Below are positions 4,727 to 46,102 of a stretch of 64,000 nt of DNA, piece by piece. The DNA is from an uncultured Verrucomicrobiota bacterium. GTDB taxonomy: Bacteria; Verrucomicrobiota; Verrucomicrobiia; Verrucomicrobiales; Verrucomicrobiaceae. Made by a program: the position numbers and the translations under genes. The notes beneath the pieces are model-generated. The model was not told the DNA's origin. It ran no database searches and worked only from the letters and a program-made list of their open reading frames with translations. How positions within the stretch are numbered: position 1 is the stretch's first letter; every line of letters starts with the position of its first letter. Location: contig CAILZI010000111.1 of the NCBI GenBank assembly GCA_903838675.1, positions 224-64,223 of the forward strand, in the 5' to 3' direction.

Positions 4727-5490
4727 ACTGCCAAGAAACACAACACTGGCTCTCCGCCTATTGCGATGGTGAACTGCCGATGCCGCTGACACTTGAGATC
4801 GAGCGGCATTTTGGCGGCTGCCAGAACTGTGCGCTGATGAGGGATAACAGCACGCTCATGAGCAAGCGCCTACGTGCCGCAGCCTTCACGGTACCTGAGG
4901 GGCTGAGGCAGAGTGTGCGTGCCGCTGTGCAGCCGCAGGCCCAAGCCGCACGCGTCGTCCGGCCAGGCCGCAATTGGTGGACGGGCATTGCTGCCGCTGC
5001 TGCCATTGTCATCGCTGCCTTCCTGGTGCAGACGCATGACCGTGCGCAGGACAAGCGCCTGCTGTTGAGTGAAGTCACTGACAGCCACATTCGCTCGCTC
5101 ATCGGCGATCATTTGGTCGATGTCGCCTCATCGGACAAGCACACCGTGCGTCCGTGGTTTGAGGGCAAAGTGGACTTTGCACCCGCAGTGCCGGACCTAT
5201 CCGCGCAGGGATTTAAAACCATTGGCGGAAGGCTCGACTACATTGGCGGTCATTCGGCTGCCGCGCTTGTGTATCAATGCCGCAAGCACTACATCAGCCT
5301 GCTTCTCTGGCCTGCCGGGGTGGATGAGAATGCCTCATCGGGCATTCAATCTGAGGCAGCGCAGCGGGGCTACAGCATCGTGCGCTGGAACGCGGGAGGG
5401 CTGTGCTACTGGGCCATTTCAGAGATCAGTCAGGAGGATCTGAAGTCCTTTGCAAAAGCTTTTCAGGGAGAGGTCGGAGGCGTGCAATAA
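4723..5490 (+). CDS. Membrane anti-sigma factor with N-terminal zinc-finger (H-x3-C-x2-C)
   Basis: ATGA overlap with the sigma gene; LSAYCDGEL...RHFGGCQNC, one TM helix (WWTGIAAAAAIVIAAFLV), periplasmic DVASSDKHTVRPWFEGKVDFAP domain. Confidence 0.88.
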   Translation: MNCQETQHWLSAYCDGELPMPLTLEIERHFGGCQNCALMRDNSTLMSKRLRAAAFTVPEGLRQSVRAAVQPQAQAARVVRPGRNWWTGIAAAAAIVIAAFLVQTHDRAQDKRLLLSEVTDSHIRSLIGDHLVDVASSDKHTVRPWFEGKVDFAPAVPDLSAQGFKTIGGRLDYIGGHSAAALVYQCRKHYISLLLWPAGVDENASSGIQSEAAQRGYSIVRWNAGGLCYWAISEISQEDLKSFAKAFQGEVGGVQ

Positions 5491-5536
5491 GCAGCCGAGT
5501 ATACAGCTCGGTCTGGGTGAAGCGTACGCGCCTTCC

Positions 5537-5554
5537 GGAACGAGCTAAAGCTCG
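5537..5554. repeat. Copy of the short dispersed GAACGAGCT-AAAG-CTCG palindromic element
   Basis: ggaacgagctaaagctcg contains the hairpin cgagc-taaa-gctcg; it lies in a convergent intergenic gap. Confidence 0.4.
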
Positions 5555-5569
5555 AGAGTACTTTATGGC

Positions 5570-6805
5570 TCAGCCTTCCAGCGTGTGGACGAATAGGCCG
5601 CTGCGGAGCTTGGGTTCAAACCAGGTGCTCTTAGGGGGCATGATCTGGCCGACGTCGGAGATGGCCATGAGTTGATCGACGGTGGTGGGGAACATGGAGA
5701 AGGCCACGGTGTGCTCCTTGGCATTTACCAATTTTTCCAGTTCAGCCGTGCCACGGATGCCTCCGATGAAGTCGATGCGCTTGCTGGTGCGCGGGTCGTC
5801 GATGCCGAGGATCGGCTTGAGCAGGCGGTCCTGGAGGATGCTGACGTCGAGCTGTTCGATGGGGCTGGCATCCTTGGCGGGCTCCCAGTTAAGCTCATAC
5901 CACTGGTCCTTGAGGTACATGCAGCACTGGCCGGGTTTGGTGGGGGACTTGAGGGTGGTGGGCTTGATGGTGAAGACTTCGCCGACCTTCTTGAGAAACT
6001 CCTCGCGGTCGTTGCAGTTGAGATCTTTGACCGCGCGGTTGTAGGGAAGGATTTTGAGTTCGTTGCCGGGGAAGAGCACGCTGAGGAACCAGTTGTAGTT
6101 TTCCTCGCCTGTGTGGTTCGGGTTGGCCTCGCGGCGCAGCTTGCTGACGCGGAAGGCGCTGGCGGCGCGGTGGTGGCCATCGGCGACGTAGGCGCAGGGA
6201 ACCTGGCTTTCAAACAGGCCGGTCAAGGACACGCAGAGGCCGAGCGAGATGCGCCAGAGCTGATGGCGCACGCCATCGGGGGCGGTGAAGTCGTTGATGG
6301 GCTTCTCGGTCTTCATGAAGCTTTCGATCAGAGCGCTGATGCCGGGACGCTGGCGGTAGGTGAGGAAAATGGGGCCGGTGTTGGCATTGAGGGCATCGAC
6401 GAGATTGGTGCGGTCGTCCTCTTTGTCCTGGCGGGTCTTCTCGTGCTTCTTGATGATGTCCTTCTCGTAGTCCTCGGTGTGGCAGACGGTGACGAGGCCG
6501 GTCTGGCTGTGGCCGGCGATGACCTGGCGGTAAAGGTACATGCAGGGCTTGGCCTCGCGGACGAGGATGCCATCCTTCTGCAGGCGGTCGAAGTTTTCGC
6601 GGGCCTTGGCGTAAACGGGGGCGGAATAGGGATCGATTTCAGGATCGAGATCGATTTCGGCGCGGTCCACATGCAGGAGGCTGAAGGGCTTGCCCTTGGC
6701 CAGGGCGGCGGCTTCCTCCCGGTTCACCACGTCGTAAGGAACGGCGGCGACTTCGGGGGCGTTTTTCTGGGTGGGGACGAGACCTTTGAATGAGCGGATG
6801 CGCAT
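5570..6805 (-). CDS. DUF1015 family protein
   Basis: PYDVV, HEKTR, YVADGHHR, IDFIGG and C-terminal MPPKSTWFEPKLRSGL are typical of DUF1015. Confidence 0.88.
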   Translation of the reverse strand: MRIRSFKGLVPTQKNAPEVAAVPYDVVNREEAAALAKGKPFSLLHVDRAEIDLDPEIDPYSAPVYAKARENFDRLQKDGILVREAKPCMYLYRQVIAGHSQTGLVTVCHTEDYEKDIIKKHEKTRQDKEDDRTNLVDALNANTGPIFLTYRQRPGISALIESFMKTEKPINDFTAPDGVRHQLWRISLGLCVSLTGLFESQVPCAYVADGHHRAASAFRVSKLRREANPNHTGEENYNWFLSVLFPGNELKILPYNRAVKDLNCNDREEFLKKVGEVFTIKPTTLKSPTKPGQCCMYLKDQWYELNWEPAKDASPIEQLDVSILQDRLLKPILGIDDPRTSKRIDFIGGIRGTAELEKLVNAKEHTVAFSMFPTTVDQLMAISDVGQIMPPKSTWFEPKLRSGLFVHTLEG

Positions 6806-6947: not shown

Positions 6948-7376
6948 GTGGACGACGACCTGGTGTTTTCAGAAAACGAAAGACCGCGCTACCTGCTGCC
7001 GGAAGGCTGCAAGGACCTTTATGACGTGATTCGGATGCAAGAGCGGGATGCCGCCATTGAAAAGGAGAGGGCTGCCATCCGTTCCAGTGCTCTTGAAAAA
7101 TATGCCAGCAAGGAAATGGAAGATCCCATGAGCACTTTGGCGCAGCTTGCGGAAGCCTTTGAAAAGCACCTCGGTGCGCCCGCCAAGGAATTGCCTCAAT
7201 GTATCGCGATTCCAATACCCGTGACCGTTGGTGAGCTGGCTGGCCTGCTTTTTATGCAGCCTTTCAAGATCATTTCTTTGCTGATTAAGCTCAAAATCTT
7301 TGCCAGCAAAGATTCAGAGATCAGCTACGAAACCGCTTCCAAAATTTGCGCTTTCTTTGGAGTGGCGGTGAAATAG
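6948..7376 (+). CDS. Small protein with a C-terminal IF2 N-terminal (IF2_N-like) domain
   Basis: IPIPVTVGELAGLLFMQPFKIISLLIKLKIFASKDSEISYETASKICAFFG matches the IF2_N pattern (xTVxELAxxL...IIxxLxxL...IxxETAxxIxxxFG); visibly AT-richer than its flanks. Confidence 0.7.
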   Translation: MDDDLVFSENERPRYLLPEGCKDLYDVIRMQERDAAIEKERAAIRSSALEKYASKEMEDPMSTLAQLAEAFEKHLGAPAKELPQCIAIPIPVTVGELAGLLFMQPFKIISLLIKLKIFASKDSEISYETASKICAFFGVAVK

Positions 7377-12291: not shown

Positions 12292-12714
12292 TCACTTCTT
12301 TCGCTGCCATGGAATCGCAATGGTGACGGAGTAGTATCCGGCACCATTGGGTGAGTCGTCGAGATACAGGACAAAGCCGCAGCAGTTTGGCTCCAGTGCG
12401 ATGACGTCGCGCCCTTTGCGACGGACGATTGTGGCATGGGAGAGATCAAGATTGGCAAACTCACTCCATTGGGTCGGTGTCTTGTCTAGGTCTAGCCAGC
12501 GCTTGCCCTGAAACTTCATGCTCACAGGCTCGGACCAATGGAGGTGTGTCCATTTCACGCGCTCCTTAGTGAAGGTAAACTTGTCGCTGCCGTCAATGAC
12601 TCCAGAGATCGTCAGATATTCATAGGGATCCACCGGAGGCTTGGGGGCAGAGGTGCAGCTGCTGAGCAAAGTGAGCATGAACAAAACGGACAGGAAGGCG
12701 GGCATTGACTTCAT
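12292..12714 (-). CDS. Hypothetical lipoprotein
   Basis: MKSMPAFLSVLFMLTLLSSC lipobox; AT-richer than flanks; start moved to ATG 12714. Confidence 0.65.
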   Translation of the reverse strand: MKSMPAFLSVLFMLTLLSSCTSAPKPPVDPYEYLTISGVIDGSDKFTFTKERVKWTHLHWSEPVSMKFQGKRWLDLDKTPTQWSEFANLDLSHATIVRRKGRDVIALEPNCCGFVLYLDDSPNGAGYYSVTIAIPWQRKK

Positions 12715-12845
12715 GGTATGAAAAATTAGGAGGTAAACGTTGTCTGAGACTATCTGAAACAAGGTTGCCCTTGCCAAACCATTCTTTTGCCAATTCTCAA
12801 CGTGTCCGTGCTGTCAGAGCCTGATGTTAATGGCCAGATGCGTTA

Positions 12846-20598: not shown

Positions 20599-22095
20599 AT
20601 GATTCGGAATCTATTGTTCGACTGGTCCGGCACGCTGGTGGATGACCTGCCAGGCGTGGTGTTTGCCGTGAACGGCATGCTGCGCGCCGCTGGAGTGGCG
20701 GAAATGACGCGGGAGGAATTCAAGACGCGGTTTCGCCTGCCCTACACCGAGTTTTTTGCGGAGGTGCTGCCGGGCCTGCCGCTGGAGCGCCTGCAGCAGC
20801 TTTATCTGGAGCACTTCACACATGCACATGCAGACATCCGCCTGCTGCCCCACGCGCTGGAGTGCCTCAAGCACGCCGCCGCCACGGGGCGCCGACTCGT
20901 GGTGCTGAGCAGTGCGCCGCTGCCGCATGTGGCGGCCCAGGCGGAGGCTCTGGGGGTGCGGGATCTGTTTGAAGTCATGCGCTGCGGAGTCATCGACAAA
21001 CGCACCGAAATCCACGGGCTGCTGGCGGAGCTGGACATGGCCGCCGCAGAGACTGCCTTCATCGGCGACATGCGGCATGACATTGATGCGGGCCATGCCG
21101 CCGGGGTGGTGACCATCGCCACGTGTACCGGCTACGAAAGCGCCGAGACGCTCATGACATCTGCGCCAGACATGCTGGTGCCCGATCTCTCGCGTCTGCC
21201 TGCCTGGCTGGGGCCTCTGGGCGGGAGTGATGGGGCCTACCCGGTGTCCACCGTGGGGGCGCTCATTTTGAACTCAAAAGGTGAGATGCTGCTCATCCGG
21301 ACGCACAAGTGGAGCCACCGCTGGGGCATCCCCGGGGGGAAGATCAAACGCGGCGAAACCTGCGAGGAGGCGCTCATTCGCGAGATCCAGGAGGAAACTG
21401 CGCTCACGCTGCAGGGCATCGAATTCGTCATGGTGCAGGACTGCATTGAGCCGGTGGAGTTTCAGCGGTCCGCTCACTTTCTGCTGCTGAACTACATCGC
21501 ACGCTGTGCCGATGACGCACCGCCGGTGGTGCTGAATGAGGAGGCGCAGGCCTTTCAATGGCTGCCGCTGGCCGAGGCCCTGCAGATGGATCTGAACATC
21601 CCCACGCGAGTTCTGCTGGACGAATGCATGAGGCAGGGGCTGCTGGGCGAAAAGCCGAATGAAGCTCCAGCACCGCAAGCCCTGGCCGGGACTTCCGCAT
21701 TGTCAGATCCCCATCCCCGGCTAAAACCACCACCCCACATGCTTCCTCCTGACGAAATACGTATTTCCGCCCTGCGCCTGACCACGCACATCGGTGTTCC
21801 TGAGGAGGAGCGGGCCGGGAGCCAGGTGCTGGAGGCGGACGTCACCCTGCGCATTCGCCGGCGTTTTGAGGCGATGGACGATGACCTTGCGGCGACGATC
21901 GACTACGCCGCAGTCGCCGCGCGGCTGCAGGCACTGGCGGCGGAGCGGCCCCGGCGGCTGATCGAAACCCTCGCAGCCGAGATGGCGGCGTGTGTGCTGG
22001 AGGAATTTCAAGCCATTGGTGTGACCCTGGAATTGCGCAAACGCATCCTGCCGGACACGGATCATGTGGCGGTGCGTCTTGTGCGTGGAGACTGA
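20599..22095 (+). CDS. folB: Three-domain fusion: HAD phosphatase, Nudix hydrolase, dihydroneopterin aldolase (FolB)
   Basis: HAD motifs FDWSGT / LSS / DK / IGDMRHD; Nudix box GGKIKRGETCEEALIREIQEET; FolB HIGVPEEER...DDDLAATIDYA...LIETLA...LELRK. No stop codon in 498 codons. Confidence 0.88.
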   Translation: MIRNLLFDWSGTLVDDLPGVVFAVNGMLRAAGVAEMTREEFKTRFRLPYTEFFAEVLPGLPLERLQQLYLEHFTHAHADIRLLPHALECLKHAAATGRRLVVLSSAPLPHVAAQAEALGVRDLFEVMRCGVIDKRTEIHGLLAELDMAAAETAFIGDMRHDIDAGHAAGVVTIATCTGYESAETLMTSAPDMLVPDLSRLPAWLGPLGGSDGAYPVSTVGALILNSKGEMLLIRTHKWSHRWGIPGGKIKRGETCEEALIREIQEETALTLQGIEFVMVQDCIEPVEFQRSAHFLLLNYIARCADDAPPVVLNEEAQAFQWLPLAEALQMDLNIPTRVLLDECMRQGLLGEKPNEAPAPQALAGTSALSDPHPRLKPPPHMLPPDEIRISALRLTTHIGVPEEERAGSQVLEADVTLRIRRRFEAMDDDLAATIDYAAVAARLQALAAERPRRLIETLAAEMAACVLEEFQAIGVTLELRKRILPDTDHVAVRLVRGD

Positions 22096-22192: not shown

Positions 22193-22399
22193 ATGAAATC
22201 TTTGCACCTTATCGTGGCCGCATTGCTTGCCTCCACTCTTCTCATCTCCTGCGGCACCCATGCCGATTCGCGGCAACCCACAGTGTCCCAGCAGGATGCC
22301 TATGATTTGAGCTGGGGACTGACACCGCGCAAAGCGCGTGGCAATCCGAAGATGCGCTATCAGTACAATTCCAGAGCCGAGCAGGCCTCCGCGCCCTGA
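22193..22399 (+). CDS. Small lipoprotein, paralog 1 (68 aa, apparently truncated by a 1-nt deletion)
   Basis: MKSLHLIVAALLASTLLISC lipobox; shares RGNPKMRYQYNSRAEQ with the next gene. Confidence 0.7.
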   Translation: MKSLHLIVAALLASTLLISCGTHADSRQPTVSQQDAYDLSWGLTPRKARGNPKMRYQYNSRAEQASAP

Positions 22400-22550: not shown

Positions 22551-22865
22551 ATGACATCTCTGCGCTACCTTTTTGCCGCTCTGCTTGCCTCCACTCTTCT
22601 CGTTTCCTGCGGTTCCTTTGAGCATGTTGACTCACGTCATCCCACAGTGGCCCAGCAGGATGTTTTCGATGTGAGCTGGGGCCTGCCCCCACGTAAATCT
22701 CGTGGCAACCCGAAGATGCGCTATCAGTACAACTCCAGAGCTGAGCAGTCCGCCGCTCCTATGAGTCTCGAGCCTGCGGCACGTACCGCTCCCGTGCTGG
22801 CACCCACACCTGCGCCGAGCCAAGCCGCCCCGAGCAGCCCAACGATCCCGCCCAATCTGCGCTAA
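22551..22865 (+). CDS. Small lipoprotein, paralog 2 (104 aa, Pro/Ala-rich tail)
   Basis: LLASTLLVSC lipobox; conserved SWGLxPRKxRGNPKMRYQYNSRAEQ core. Confidence 0.75.
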   Translation: MTSLRYLFAALLASTLLVSCGSFEHVDSRHPTVAQQDVFDVSWGLPPRKSRGNPKMRYQYNSRAEQSAAPMSLEPAARTAPVLAPTPAPSQAAPSSPTIPPNLR

Positions 22866-44126: not shown

Positions 44127-44908
44127 GCCAGGAGCCTCCGGGTGATGGTGGCTGCGGCTTCGAGGCAGAGCTTGCCGGCTTTGTCGAACTGGTCGCGTTT
44201 CAGACGGAAGGAAGGGGACATGACGGTGATGGCGGCAACGGGGTAATGGTATTCGTCGAGGATGGCTGCGGCGACACAATGAATGCCTTCGAGCCCCTCG
44301 GCGATGTCGGTGGCAAAGCCTCGCTTGCGCGTTTTGACGAGGTCGGTTTCGAGCGAATCTGAAGTGGCGAGTGTGGTGGGCGTGTACTGCTTGAGCTGTA
44401 CGGCGGCGAAAAACTTTTCGAGCTCCGATGGAGGGAGGTGGGCCAGCACCGCCTTGCCGGGGGCGCAGGAGTACATGGGCACCTGCAGGCCGACGGTGCT
44501 GCTGACCTTGATCGGCTGCGAAGAGATGCACTGCTCCAGCACGGTCATCTTGTGATTCACGCTGGCGAGGATTTGAGTGGTCTCGCCGGTTTCATCACGC
44601 AGCCATTTGAGGGATTCCAAGGCGCAGACGACGAGGCTTTTCTCGCGCACCACCGGGCGGGAAAGGTCGAAGAGCTTGTTGGTGAGCACGAAGCGTTTGT
44701 CATCCTCACGGCGCTGCAGGTAGCCGCGGCTGTGCAGCGTGCCGGTGATGCGGAAGACGGAATTGACCGGCAGATCAAGCTCGCGTGCGATCTCAGTGAG
44801 GCTGAGTCCGGCGCGGTGGCGGCCGAGGAGTTCGAGGATGGCAAGCGTGCGCTCCGTGCCGGGCGCAAGCGTATCGTCTGTGAGTGGGATGGCGGCTTCT
44901 TTGAGCAT
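44123..44908 (-). CDS. IclR-family transcriptional regulator
   Basis: ERTLAILELL...SLTEIARELDLPVNSVFRITGTL HTH; PMYSCAPGKAVLA; GIHCVAAAI. Confidence 0.92.
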   Translation of the reverse strand: MLKEAAIPLTDDTLAPGTERTLAILELLGRHRAGLSLTEIARELDLPVNSVFRITGTLHSRGYLQRREDDKRFVLTNKLFDLSRPVVREKSLVVCALESLKWLRDETGETTQILASVNHKMTVLEQCISSQPIKVSSTVGLQVPMYSCAPGKAVLAHLPPSELEKFFAAVQLKQYTPTTLATSDSLETDLVKTRKRGFATDIAEGLEGIHCVAAAILDEYHYPVAAITVMSPSFRLKRDQFDKAGKLCLEAAATITRRLLA

Positions 44909-45011
44909 TCTGAATTTAGAAACGCTCCCACATTTGGAAAACTATCGCACTATCTGGAACAGATGTTCATCGCGTTTGCATTCTCGGCGCTCTCCCGCAT
45001 TCTGCACTGAC

Positions 45012-45443
45012 ATGAGTCAGGAAAAAGACCTCACATTGCTCGGACGTTCTGAAAATCGCCTCCCCGCCTCGCCGGACGTGGCGGTGCTGGAGACGTTTCC
45101 CAATCGCACCCCCGGAAGGAACTACCGCATTCACCTCAGCGCGCCGGAATTCAGCTCGATCTGCCCCGTGACCGGGCAGCCGGATTCGGCGCATCTGGAG
45201 ATTCTCTACATCCCAGAAGCGACGTGCGTGGAAACGAAGTCGCTGAAATTCTATCTGGCCTCCTATCGAAATCACGCCTCCTTCAATGAGGCGATCGTGA
45301 ACCGCGTGCTGGACGACATCGTGAAAGCGTGTGCGCCGAAGCAGGTGGTGGTGCGTGGCAAATTTGGCGCGCGTGGCGGCATTCAGCTCACCTGCGAGGC
45401 ACGGTATCCTGATCTGGAAGAAACCCTGCGTCTGCCGGAATGA
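45012..45443 (+). CDS. queF: PreQ0 reductase (type I QueF)
   Basis: EFSSICPVTGQPD (catalytic Cys), ETKSLKFYL, ARGGI. Start moved to ATG 45012. Confidence 0.92.
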   Translation: MSQEKDLTLLGRSENRLPASPDVAVLETFPNRTPGRNYRIHLSAPEFSSICPVTGQPDSAHLEILYIPEATCVETKSLKFYLASYRNHASFNEAIVNRVLDDIVKACAPKQVVVRGKFGARGGIQLTCEARYPDLEETLRLPE

Positions 45444-46102
45444 AAACGGTCGTGCTGCTCTCTGGCGGGATGGACTCGGTGACGGCGCTGCACTGGGCGC
45501 TGCGGGAGCATGAGGTCGTGGGAGCGGTGAGTTTTGACTACGGTGCGAAGCACAACCACCGCGAGATTCCACTGGCTGCATGGCAGTGTGCGAACTCCGG
45601 CGTGAAGCATGACATCATCGACCTGGATTTTGTGAACCGGCTGTTTGCTTCCGATCTGCTCAAATCCGGCGGTACGATTCCCGAGGGGCATTACGCCGAC
45701 GAAAACATGAAGAAGACCGTCGTGCCGTTTCGCAACGGCATCATGCTTTCCATCGCCTGCGGTTTGGCGGAGAGCTGTGAGGCCGAGGGACTCGTCATTG
45801 CTGCGCACGCTGGAGATCACACCATCTACCCCGACTGCCGGGAGCCTTTCATGGAGGGAATGGCTGCGGCGATGCGTGAGGGCACCTACGCCCGGATCGA
45901 GCTGCTGCGTCCGTTCATTCATCTCGACAAAGCAGGCATCGCCAAACTCGGCGATAATCTGGGGGTGGATTACGGCAGGACGTGGTCGTGCTACAAGGGC
46001 GGAGACTTGCACTGCGGGAAGTGCGGCACGTGTGTGGAGCGCATCGAGGCGTTTGTGCTCGCGGGCCTCCCGGACCCGACGATCTACGAGACCAATTCTT
46101 GA
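45440..46102 (+). CDS. queC: 7-cyano-7-deazaguanine synthase
   Basis: LLSGGMDS, FDYGAKH, TVVPFRN, YPDCR, TWSCY...CGKCGTC; ATGA overlap with queF. Confidence 0.95.
   Translation: MKTVVLLSGGMDSVTALHWALREHEVVGAVSFDYGAKHNHREIPLAAWQCANSGVKHDIIDLDFVNRLFASDLLKSGGTIPEGHYADENMKKTVVPFRNGIMLSIACGLAESCEAEGLVIAAHAGDHTIYPDCREPFMEGMAAAMREGTYARIELLRPFIHLDKAGIAKLGDNLGVDYGRTWSCYKGGDLHCGKCGTCVERIEAFVLAGLPDPTIYETNS

Follow-up and report, generated by a model that had tools for sequence, protein, structure and literature searches.

A gene at positions 20599-22095 of a 64,000-nucleotide stretch of DNA from an uncultured bacterium of the Verrucomicrobiaceae (contig CAILZI010000111.1; "the window" refers to this whole analysed stretch) encodes a HAD domain, a Nudix domain and a FolB domain in one polypeptide. 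We find that the fusion is genuine but recent, and that it joined the two genes of a conserved module, HAD-Nudix followed by folB, which is widespread in bacteria of the Planctomycetes-Verrucomicrobia-Chlamydiae (PVC) group, namely Verrucomicrobiota, Planctomycetota and Chlamydiota. Judged from its genomic context and conserved residues, the module probably converts dihydroneopterin triphosphate to hydroxymethyldihydropterin in three steps of folate synthesis. Since the three domains are functionally linked by adjacency, by fusions and by pathway neighbors, the HAD domain is a good candidate for the dihydroneopterin-monophosphate phosphatase.

The gene is a single uninterrupted open reading frame (ORF), and each of its three domains was matched above the Pfam gathering cut-off (Table 1). 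The AlphaFold2 model (AF2; monomer only), built from a 150-sequence alignment, has predicted local distance difference test (pLDDT) values of about 96 in the HAD and Nudix domains, 70-90 in FolB and below 50 in residues 353-381. An earlier reading of the DNA, made from the sequence alone, had described a 498-codon frame with these three domains, a Pro-rich linker of about 35 residues, an in-frame ATG of FolB at 21739, an intact Nudix box and a HAD motif I of the form DWSGT lacking the second Asp. The description holds throughout: the linker, residues 346-380, is Pro-rich (8 Pro in 31 residues), the ATG encodes Met381, motif I occupies residues 8-12, and the Nudix box, residues 246-268, is intact save for an Ala that replaces its penultimate Gly.

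The junction between the Nudix and FolB parts is covered by contigs of three separate lake-water metagenome runs, with zero differences. Besides the window, the fusion was found in eight further species-level genomes (L006-L013, from contigs of one genome per species; L numbers denote loci), and its length is always 498 residues. Because three runs reproduce the junction and nine genomes carry the fusion, it is genuine, and an assembly error or read-through artefact is ruled out. In a search of 5.8 billion proteins the 498-residue form turned up in no more than six clusters, with identities of 87-90%; the other relatives, over 100 of them at 58-89% identity, are about 350 residues long and contain HAD and Nudix only. 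About 70 other Verrucomicrobiaceae and Chthoniobacterales genomes have folB as a gene of its own, 7-200 bp 3' of the 350-residue HAD-Nudix gene, with gaps of 196 bp in Prosthecobacter vanneervenii, 69 bp in Roseimicrobium sp. ORNL1, where the flanking genes differ, and 7 bp in one metagenome-assembled genome (MAG). In an alignment of the junction DNA, the linker coincides with what used to be the intergenic spacer, and folB has kept its ancestral ATG in frame. The fusion is a recent stop-codon loss confined to one Prosthecobacter subclade, in which the frame has since been kept open. The linker, as read from the alignment, is the translated remnant of the HAD-Nudix/folB spacer, fast-evolving and predicted to be disordered. 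The sequence-only reading had itself raised the case that relatives always have a stop before folB, with the fusion then a recent read-through or an assembly error. A recent stop loss and mostly unfused relatives are indeed what we see, but the nine fused genomes contradict "always", and there was no assembly error.

For the Prosthecobacter subclade, tolerance of the lost stop suffices and no functional explanation of the fusion is needed. It is quite conceivable, although we lean somewhat the other way, that the fusion is a neutral read-through, with no channelling or special assembly and with FolB perhaps still made from the internal ATG at 21739. The origin of the linker in a former spacer, its predicted disorder, its faster evolution (in the nine fused genomes its pairwise identity averages 72%, versus 93% in each domain), the separate genes of most relatives and the retained ancestral folB start codon all agree with neutrality. 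Yet the frame has stayed open across nine species-level genomes, and independent fusions of the same domains recur (see below), suggesting that fusion is at least mildly favored; furthermore, no Shine-Dalgarno-like sequence precedes 21739, though the unfused relatives are likewise without one. FolB is an octamer, and it had been suggested in advance that the fusion might build a large FolB-based assembly and possibly channel substrates. A linker that is spacer-derived, disordered and fast-evolving provides no evidence for channelling, and a recent stop loss none for a designed assembly. As a separate observation, unfused Prosthecobacter relatives (L001, ~7062-7258; L022, ~5059-5259) have between HAD-Nudix and folB a long palindromic spacer, GAATGACGAAAT...ATTTCGTCATTC, which might act as a terminator or attenuator or be a repeat element and is mostly lost in the fused clade.

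Adjacency of the genes across Verrucomicrobiota, a check proposed along with the sequence-only reading, was examined in two scans. The first covered 85 loci of Verrucomicrobiaceae, Chthoniobacterales and Luteolibacter (45-91% identity), and in 72 of them, or in 72 of the 81 with enough downstream sequence, folB follows immediately on the same strand; in four loci folB is close by but on the opposite strand, and four are truncated at a contig end. The second, started from HAD-FolB seeds, added 80 Verrucomicrobiota loci from Akkermansiaceae, Rubritalea, Roseibacillus, Limisphaerales, Methylacidiphilales and Pedosphaera. Here the HAD is linked or fused to folB in 68 of 80 cases (24 HAD fused to FolB, 26 HAD followed by a separate folB, and 18 HAD-Nudix followed by folB). 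Pooled, about 140 of the 165 loci have folB as a neighbor or fusion partner. The same gene order was seen in MAGs labelled Eremiobacterota, Acidobacteriota and Planctomycetota, where it should be kept in mind that MAG taxon labels can be wrong. The adjacency is kept from 91% down to about 31% identity while other neighbors change. In Pfam censuses of 134 and 150 neighboring ORFs, FolB is the only recurrent metabolic partner; DciA and extracytoplasmic function (ECF) sigma factors also recur near the module, which we read as plain synteny. Such ORF-based censuses undercount, since spurious long ORFs sometimes displaced real genes. As the second-scan loci include HAD-FolB fusions and HAD/folB pairs without Nudix, it is HAD plus FolB that forms the core conserved across Verrucomicrobiota, and Nudix is a frequent but optional middle piece.

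Several individual loci deserve mention. Two MAGs labelled "Akkermansia muciniphila" (L024 and L043) carry a Prosthecobacter-like HAD-Nudix with 76-80% identity to that of the window, and a third with the same label (L164) has the HAD-Nudix/folB arrangement of the relatives; all three bins are probably mislabelled. In a Latescibacterota MAG (L180, ~5001-5900) the Nudix gene comes first and the HAD gene 17 bp later, the reverse of the usual order, and no FolB was detected in the flank of this locus.

Fusions among the three domains recur well beyond the window. An exhaustive HMMER search against 1.84 billion representatives (clustered at 50% identity) gave 126 proteins at E < 1e-30, and the architectures of the best 150 representatives were sorted with domain hidden Markov models built in this analysis. 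These comprise 48 HAD-Nudix, 35 HAD only, 25 Nudix only, 23 HAD-FolB, 10 Nudix-FolB, 8 HAD-Nudix-FolB (the query included) and 1 Nudix-Nudix protein. Every pairwise combination of the domains thus exists, and all three PVC phyla are represented. The other triple fusions share 33-50% identity with the query, and one of them (P0149) comes from a Planctomycetota MAG; their short linkers are related neither to that of the window nor to each other, which points to independent origins of the triple fusions. The Nudix-FolB proteins, with taxonomy taken from the cluster names, are from Chlamydiales and Planctomycetota. They are homologous (33-43% identical in one alignment) and share with the window protein the Nudix clade motifs KW, HF, LNxEA..W and LNxPT. 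A third genome scan, which picked generic Nudix-box patterns, returned no genomes with stand-alone Nudix-FolB.

Some relatives adjoin other genes of the pterin pathway. The HAD-Nudix protein P0167 (motif DFAGT; L250/L251, 3704-6068) starts 20 bp after a gene for GTP cyclohydrolase I (FolE; Pfam 2.7e-72), itself preceded by a RibD_C/DHFR-like gene, in a Chlamydiota-like MAG; there was no folB within 5 kb downstream of HAD-Nudix at these loci. A Pterin_bind (FolP) gene lies 11 bp downstream of the Nudix-FolB protein P0285. In L249 (5001-6897), genes for HAD-Nudix (DWAGT), FolB and a short-chain dehydrogenase/reductase (SDR) stand in a row with 4 bp overlaps each, and the SDR carries TGSAKRLG, matching the TGX3RXG signature described for FolM/PTR1. 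Overlapping genes in a Chlamydiales MAG (L244, 5174-7442) encode a Cof-type HAD (Hydrolase_3, DIDGT), Nudix-FolB and an SDR (TGGAQNLG). The Cof-type HAD is a convergent recruitment of a non-orthologous phosphatase, the position having thus been filled at least twice. Taken together with the adjacency and the double and triple fusions, these FolE, FolP and FolM-like neighbors bear out the earlier suggestion that the three domains are functionally linked. It had also been argued that the fusion points to this HAD as a dedicated phosphatase; the HAD is a good candidate for that step, and the fusion in the window is itself recent and lineage-specific.

In the known pathway, dihydroneopterin triphosphate loses pyrophosphate (PPi) through a Nudix enzyme (NudB/FolQ), and FolB later cleaves dihydroneopterin. 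What the domains are, that the fusion is real and recent, that the genes are linked and repeatedly fused, and that catalytic residues are kept is established here; from genomic context we infer in addition what the Nudix and HAD domains act on and in which order the steps follow. FolE would make 7,8-dihydroneopterin triphosphate, from which the Nudix domain would split off PPi. The DW[S/A]GT-type HAD would then take off the remaining 3'-phosphate via an aspartyl-phosphate on Asp8, and FolB would split the resulting dihydroneopterin into 6-hydroxymethyl-7,8-dihydropterin and glycolaldehyde. In this scheme the HAD supplies FolB with its substrate, which agrees with the direct HAD-FolB fusions; the HAD-Nudix fusions fit two complementary hydrolytic steps, and the position after FolE fits the triphosphate as input. 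Catalytic residues are kept over long divergence in all three parts (D8, S/T104, K134, D157 and D161 of the HAD, the Nudix box, and E, Y, E and K of FolB). More tentatively, and with slightly less than even confidence, we propose that folate synthesis, at least in PVC bacteria, has its dedicated 7,8-dihydroneopterin-monophosphate phosphatase in the DW[S/A]GT HAD clade, which would work without the usual second Asp of motif I (Asp+2), perhaps helped by His160 or by the substrate, and would form a self-contained unit with Nudix and FolB.

The HAD family is sharply defined. Among 82 full-length representatives at 50% identity, the nucleophile D8 is present in all 82, and W9 (80/82) and H160 (75/82) are family-specific residues. 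Position 10, the Asp+2 position, is Ser in 78 representatives, Ala in three, Cys in one and Asp in none, and the motif DWSGT occurs in 84 of 85 related loci; Ser at Asp+2, within a motif I of DW[S/A]GT, is a signature of the whole family. The AF2 model has a Rossmannoid core with a C1 helical cap (subfamily IA), and Foldseek aligned it with phosphoglycolate phosphatase-like HADs (2hsz, 2ah5, 3d6j and 3mc1; TM(target) 0.77-0.86). Searches against solved structures gave generic HAD-IA neighbors for this domain and generic MutT/NudI neighbors for the Nudix domain, uninformative on substrates. Phosphoglycolate phosphatase (Gph) shares the IA fold and C1 cap, provides the best NCBIfam and fold matches and is the JGI name for relatives. 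The equivalog scores, however, are far under the cut-offs (70.3 vs 327, 67.1 vs 225 and 63.7 vs 180 bits) and Asp+2 is missing, so the name Gph is inappropriate. Phosphonoacetaldehyde hydrolase has a DWAGT-like motif I. It was likewise rejected, as TIGR01422 gave 19.5 bits against a cut-off of 220 and matched the C-terminal part of the domain only.

Several observations speak against the proposed pathway, and they are taken here domain by domain. Asp+2 is the general acid/base normally used by HAD phosphomonoesterases, and this HAD has Ser there (Ala in some relatives), so that protonation of an alcohol leaving group would need another group, perhaps His160 or the substrate. Several candidates for the phosphoryl group removed by the HAD therefore remain. 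Solved HADs with Ser at Asp+2 are LHPP (2x4d, DISGV) and HDHD2 (3hlt, DLSGT), whose motif I, D-x-S-G-[TV], is that of the window HAD; they belong to another subfamily (IIA, NagD-like) with another cap and show no detectable specific relationship to it. Both are tied by name to PPi and phosphorus-nitrogen substrates, which have good leaving groups. In addition, the HAD is decayed in some HAD-FolB proteins (P0248, P0252 and P0194), either with the nucleophile gone (FAWPGAL, FSWSGTL) or with the cap deleted and GH instead of GD in motif IV, which suggests that HAD activity is dispensable or replaced in some lineages.

One could accordingly suppose that a HAD with Ser or Ala at Asp+2 attacks a phosphoanhydride, be it in released PPi or at the phosphate end of dihydroneopterin di- or triphosphate, and that the monoester is left to general phosphatases, as is thought for E. 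coli. Absence of Asp+2 from all 82 representatives, the naming of LHPP for PPi and phosphorus-nitrogen hydrolysis, weak NCBIfam and fold matches to the HAD pyrophosphatases PpaX and BT2127, and HAD-FolB proteins lacking a fused Nudix in Akkermansiaceae and other lineages could be explained in this way. We regard it as unlikely. PpaX and BT2127 retain Asp+2, and redundant pyrophosphatases in one polypeptide across hundreds of genomes would be odd, complementary steps being the better explanation. Moreover, direct HAD-FolB fusions suit a HAD that produces the substrate of FolB, and in Chlamydiales the equivalent position is occupied by a Cof-type phosphomonoesterase with the canonical DxD.

As for the Nudix domain, its box is intact in 85 of 85 related loci, but it is not an orthologue of E. 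coli NudB, and assignment as a NudB-type diphosphatase was rejected (NF006961, 30.2 bits vs an equivalog cut-off of 103). The nearest solved structures are of generic MutT/NudI type; those of AtNUDT1, at only 2.5e-5, do not stand out from many other Nudix enzymes, and no NCBIfam equivalog was reached for this domain. The predicted tie to dihydroneopterin triphosphate rests on the linkage to FolE, FolB and FolP rather than on orthology. With nearest solved and NCBIfam matches of the MutT, NudI and NUDT15 types, and database names that read only "NUDIX domain-containing protein" or "phosphoglycolate phosphatase", HAD-Nudix might instead serve nucleotide house-cleaning, the Nudix domain converting nucleoside triphosphates to monophosphates and PPi and the HAD converting the monophosphates to nucleosides, next to folB by incidental synteny. 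This is very improbable, because the folB adjacency survives changes of all other neighbors over the whole identity range given above, fusions to FolB are repeated, relatives adjoin FolE and FolP, and the Nudix matches are all far under the family cut-offs.

The FolB domain scores above cut-off with Pfam FolB (72.8 vs 31.8 bits) and TIGR00526 (67.1 vs 45.05), and falls just below the cut-off of the folB equivalog TIGR00525 (64.9 vs 72.15). Its putative catalytic residues E404, Y436, E456 and K481 show no variation when aligned with the Nudix-FolB proteins; in the alignment with Mycobacterium tuberculosis dihydroneopterin aldolase (DHNA; 1nbu, the best solved relative, 2e-11), the E, Y and E are equivalent and the Lys is offset by two residues. 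The shortfall at TIGR00525 counts against the proposed pathway, as does the absence of folE, folK and folP both near the module in the Verrucomicrobiota censuses and among the 25 commonest Pfam families listed for 57 window ORFs. The module might then feed an unconjugated reduced pterin, tetrahydromonapterin or tetrahydroneopterin: the HAD and Nudix domains would strip phosphates, epimerization would be the main task of the FolB-like domain, and a FolM-like reductase would come last. An SDR does follow FolB in two unrelated lineages, in one of them with the FolM/PTR1 motif. Nevertheless, we think this quite unlikely, since FolX, the dihydroneopterin triphosphate epimerase, was rejected with 30.8 bits against a cut-off of 152 (NF008418) where the folB model gave 64.9, the best solved relatives of the domain are all aldolases, a FolP gene follows a Nudix-FolB relative, and no SDR neighbor was found in the Verrucomicrobiota censuses or in the window.

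The monophosphate step was ascribed to a non-specific phosphatase in 2007 (PMC1971073) and again in 2014 (PMC4161248). Compared with the canonical branch of FolE, NudB/FolQ, "non-specific phosphatase" and FolB, the chemistry proposed here is the same and Nudix and FolB are both present; the differences are a Nudix domain that is not a NudB orthologue and a dedicated HAD tied, in our proposal, to a step without a named gene. The corresponding "non-specific phosphatase" step of riboflavin synthesis is filled by the HADs YigB/YbjI and PyrP2, which have the canonical DxD and are not fused to neighboring pathway enzymes. The logic is similar, a dephosphorylation of a vitamin pathway long called unspecific, though the pathway differs. 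SulD and the fungal FolB-FolK-FolP proteins are multifunctional folate enzymes in which FolB is fused to enzymes of adjacent steps, as in the window. These fusions, like FolB-FolK of Bifidobacterium longum (PMC1971073), reach downstream (HPPK, DHPS), whereas the window fusion reaches in the upstream direction, to the steps of dephosphorylation. For Parachlamydia sp. UWE25, a published table (PMC1971073, Table 2) lists FolQ fused to FolB, likewise Nudix and FolB in one PVC polypeptide. Compared with this listing, the window protein has a HAD at the N-terminus in addition, and the junction to its FolB arose separately and recently.

Multifunctional folate enzymes and the FolQ-FolB fusion are thus already known, and members of the present family are in the databases under uninformative or wrong names. 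In the open-access literature we found no link of HAD with FolB, no description of HAD and Nudix together with dihydroneopterin, and no gene proposal for the monophosphatase. Dephosphorylation of the monophosphate is the one classical folate step without an assigned gene, and the HAD clade, phylum-wide, sharply defined and repeatedly fused to FolB or found beside FolB or FolE, gives a concrete candidate. If the proposal is true, hundreds of database names ("phosphoglycolate phosphatase", "NUDIX domain-containing protein") would be corrected, the pyrophosphatase step would gain a second Nudix clade, and a HAD subfamily operating without Asp+2 would be added. The view of folate pathway chemistry would be left unchanged.

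Table 1. Features of the fused gene and of other genes in the window (window coordinates; residue counts refer to the 82 HAD representatives)
Feature	Position	Strand	Basis or remarks
Whole fused gene, HAD-Nudix-linker-FolB	20599..22095	+	498 codons plus stop, ATG start, no stop or frameshift
HAD domain, residues 1-205, subfamily IA with C1 helical cap	20599..21213	+	Pfam HAD_2, residues 5-174 (1e-18); AF2; Foldseek
HAD motif I, D8-W9-S10-G11-T12	20620..20634	+	nucleophile Asp kept, Ser at Asp+2
HAD motif II, S104-S105	20908..20913	+	position 104 Ser/Thr in 82/82
HAD motif III Lys, K134	20998..21000	+	K in 82/82
HAD motif IV, G156-D157-M-R-H160-D161	21064..21081	+	G156, D157 and D161 in 81/82; H160 in 75/82
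Nudix domain, residues 215-345	21241..21633	+	Pfam NUDIX, residues 217-337 (5e-21); AF2 pLDDT ~96
Nudix box, G246-L268	21334..21402	+	GX5EX7REUXEEXGU, Ala at last Gly; GKIKRGETCEEALIREIQEETAL
Linker, residues 346-380	21634..21738	+	DNA alignment with unfused relatives, low pLDDT, identity drop
FolB domain, residues 381-498	21739..22092	+	Pfam FolB, residues 387-494 (4e-20); starts at ancestral folB start codon
Small lipoprotein gene, first copy	22193..22399	+	signal end ...LLISCG
Small lipoprotein gene, second copy	22551..22865	+	signal end ...LLVSCG
QueF-like gene	44739..45440	+	Pfam 1e-26
QueC gene	45440..46099	+	Pfam 7e-60

The neighbors of the fused gene encode a PEP-CTERM protein, an AP_endonuc_2 protein, two small lipoproteins and a cyclophilin, none with a folate connection. 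The two lipoprotein genes are tandem paralogues directly 3' of the fused gene; their products have a common C-terminal motif, SWGLxPRKxRGNPKMRYQYNSRAEQ, and neither has a Pfam match. P. vanneervenii has a single copy of such a gene at the same location. Elsewhere in the window, the QueF-like gene abuts QueC; these belong to the 7-deazaguanine pathway, a further branch from the FolE product. In the related loci, L244 also has a ParE/PhdYeFM toxin-antitoxin pair (12360-12780), and in P. vanneervenii (L001, 1679-3109) a protein of 476 residues with SEFIR and TIR_2 domains is encoded beside the syntenic block.

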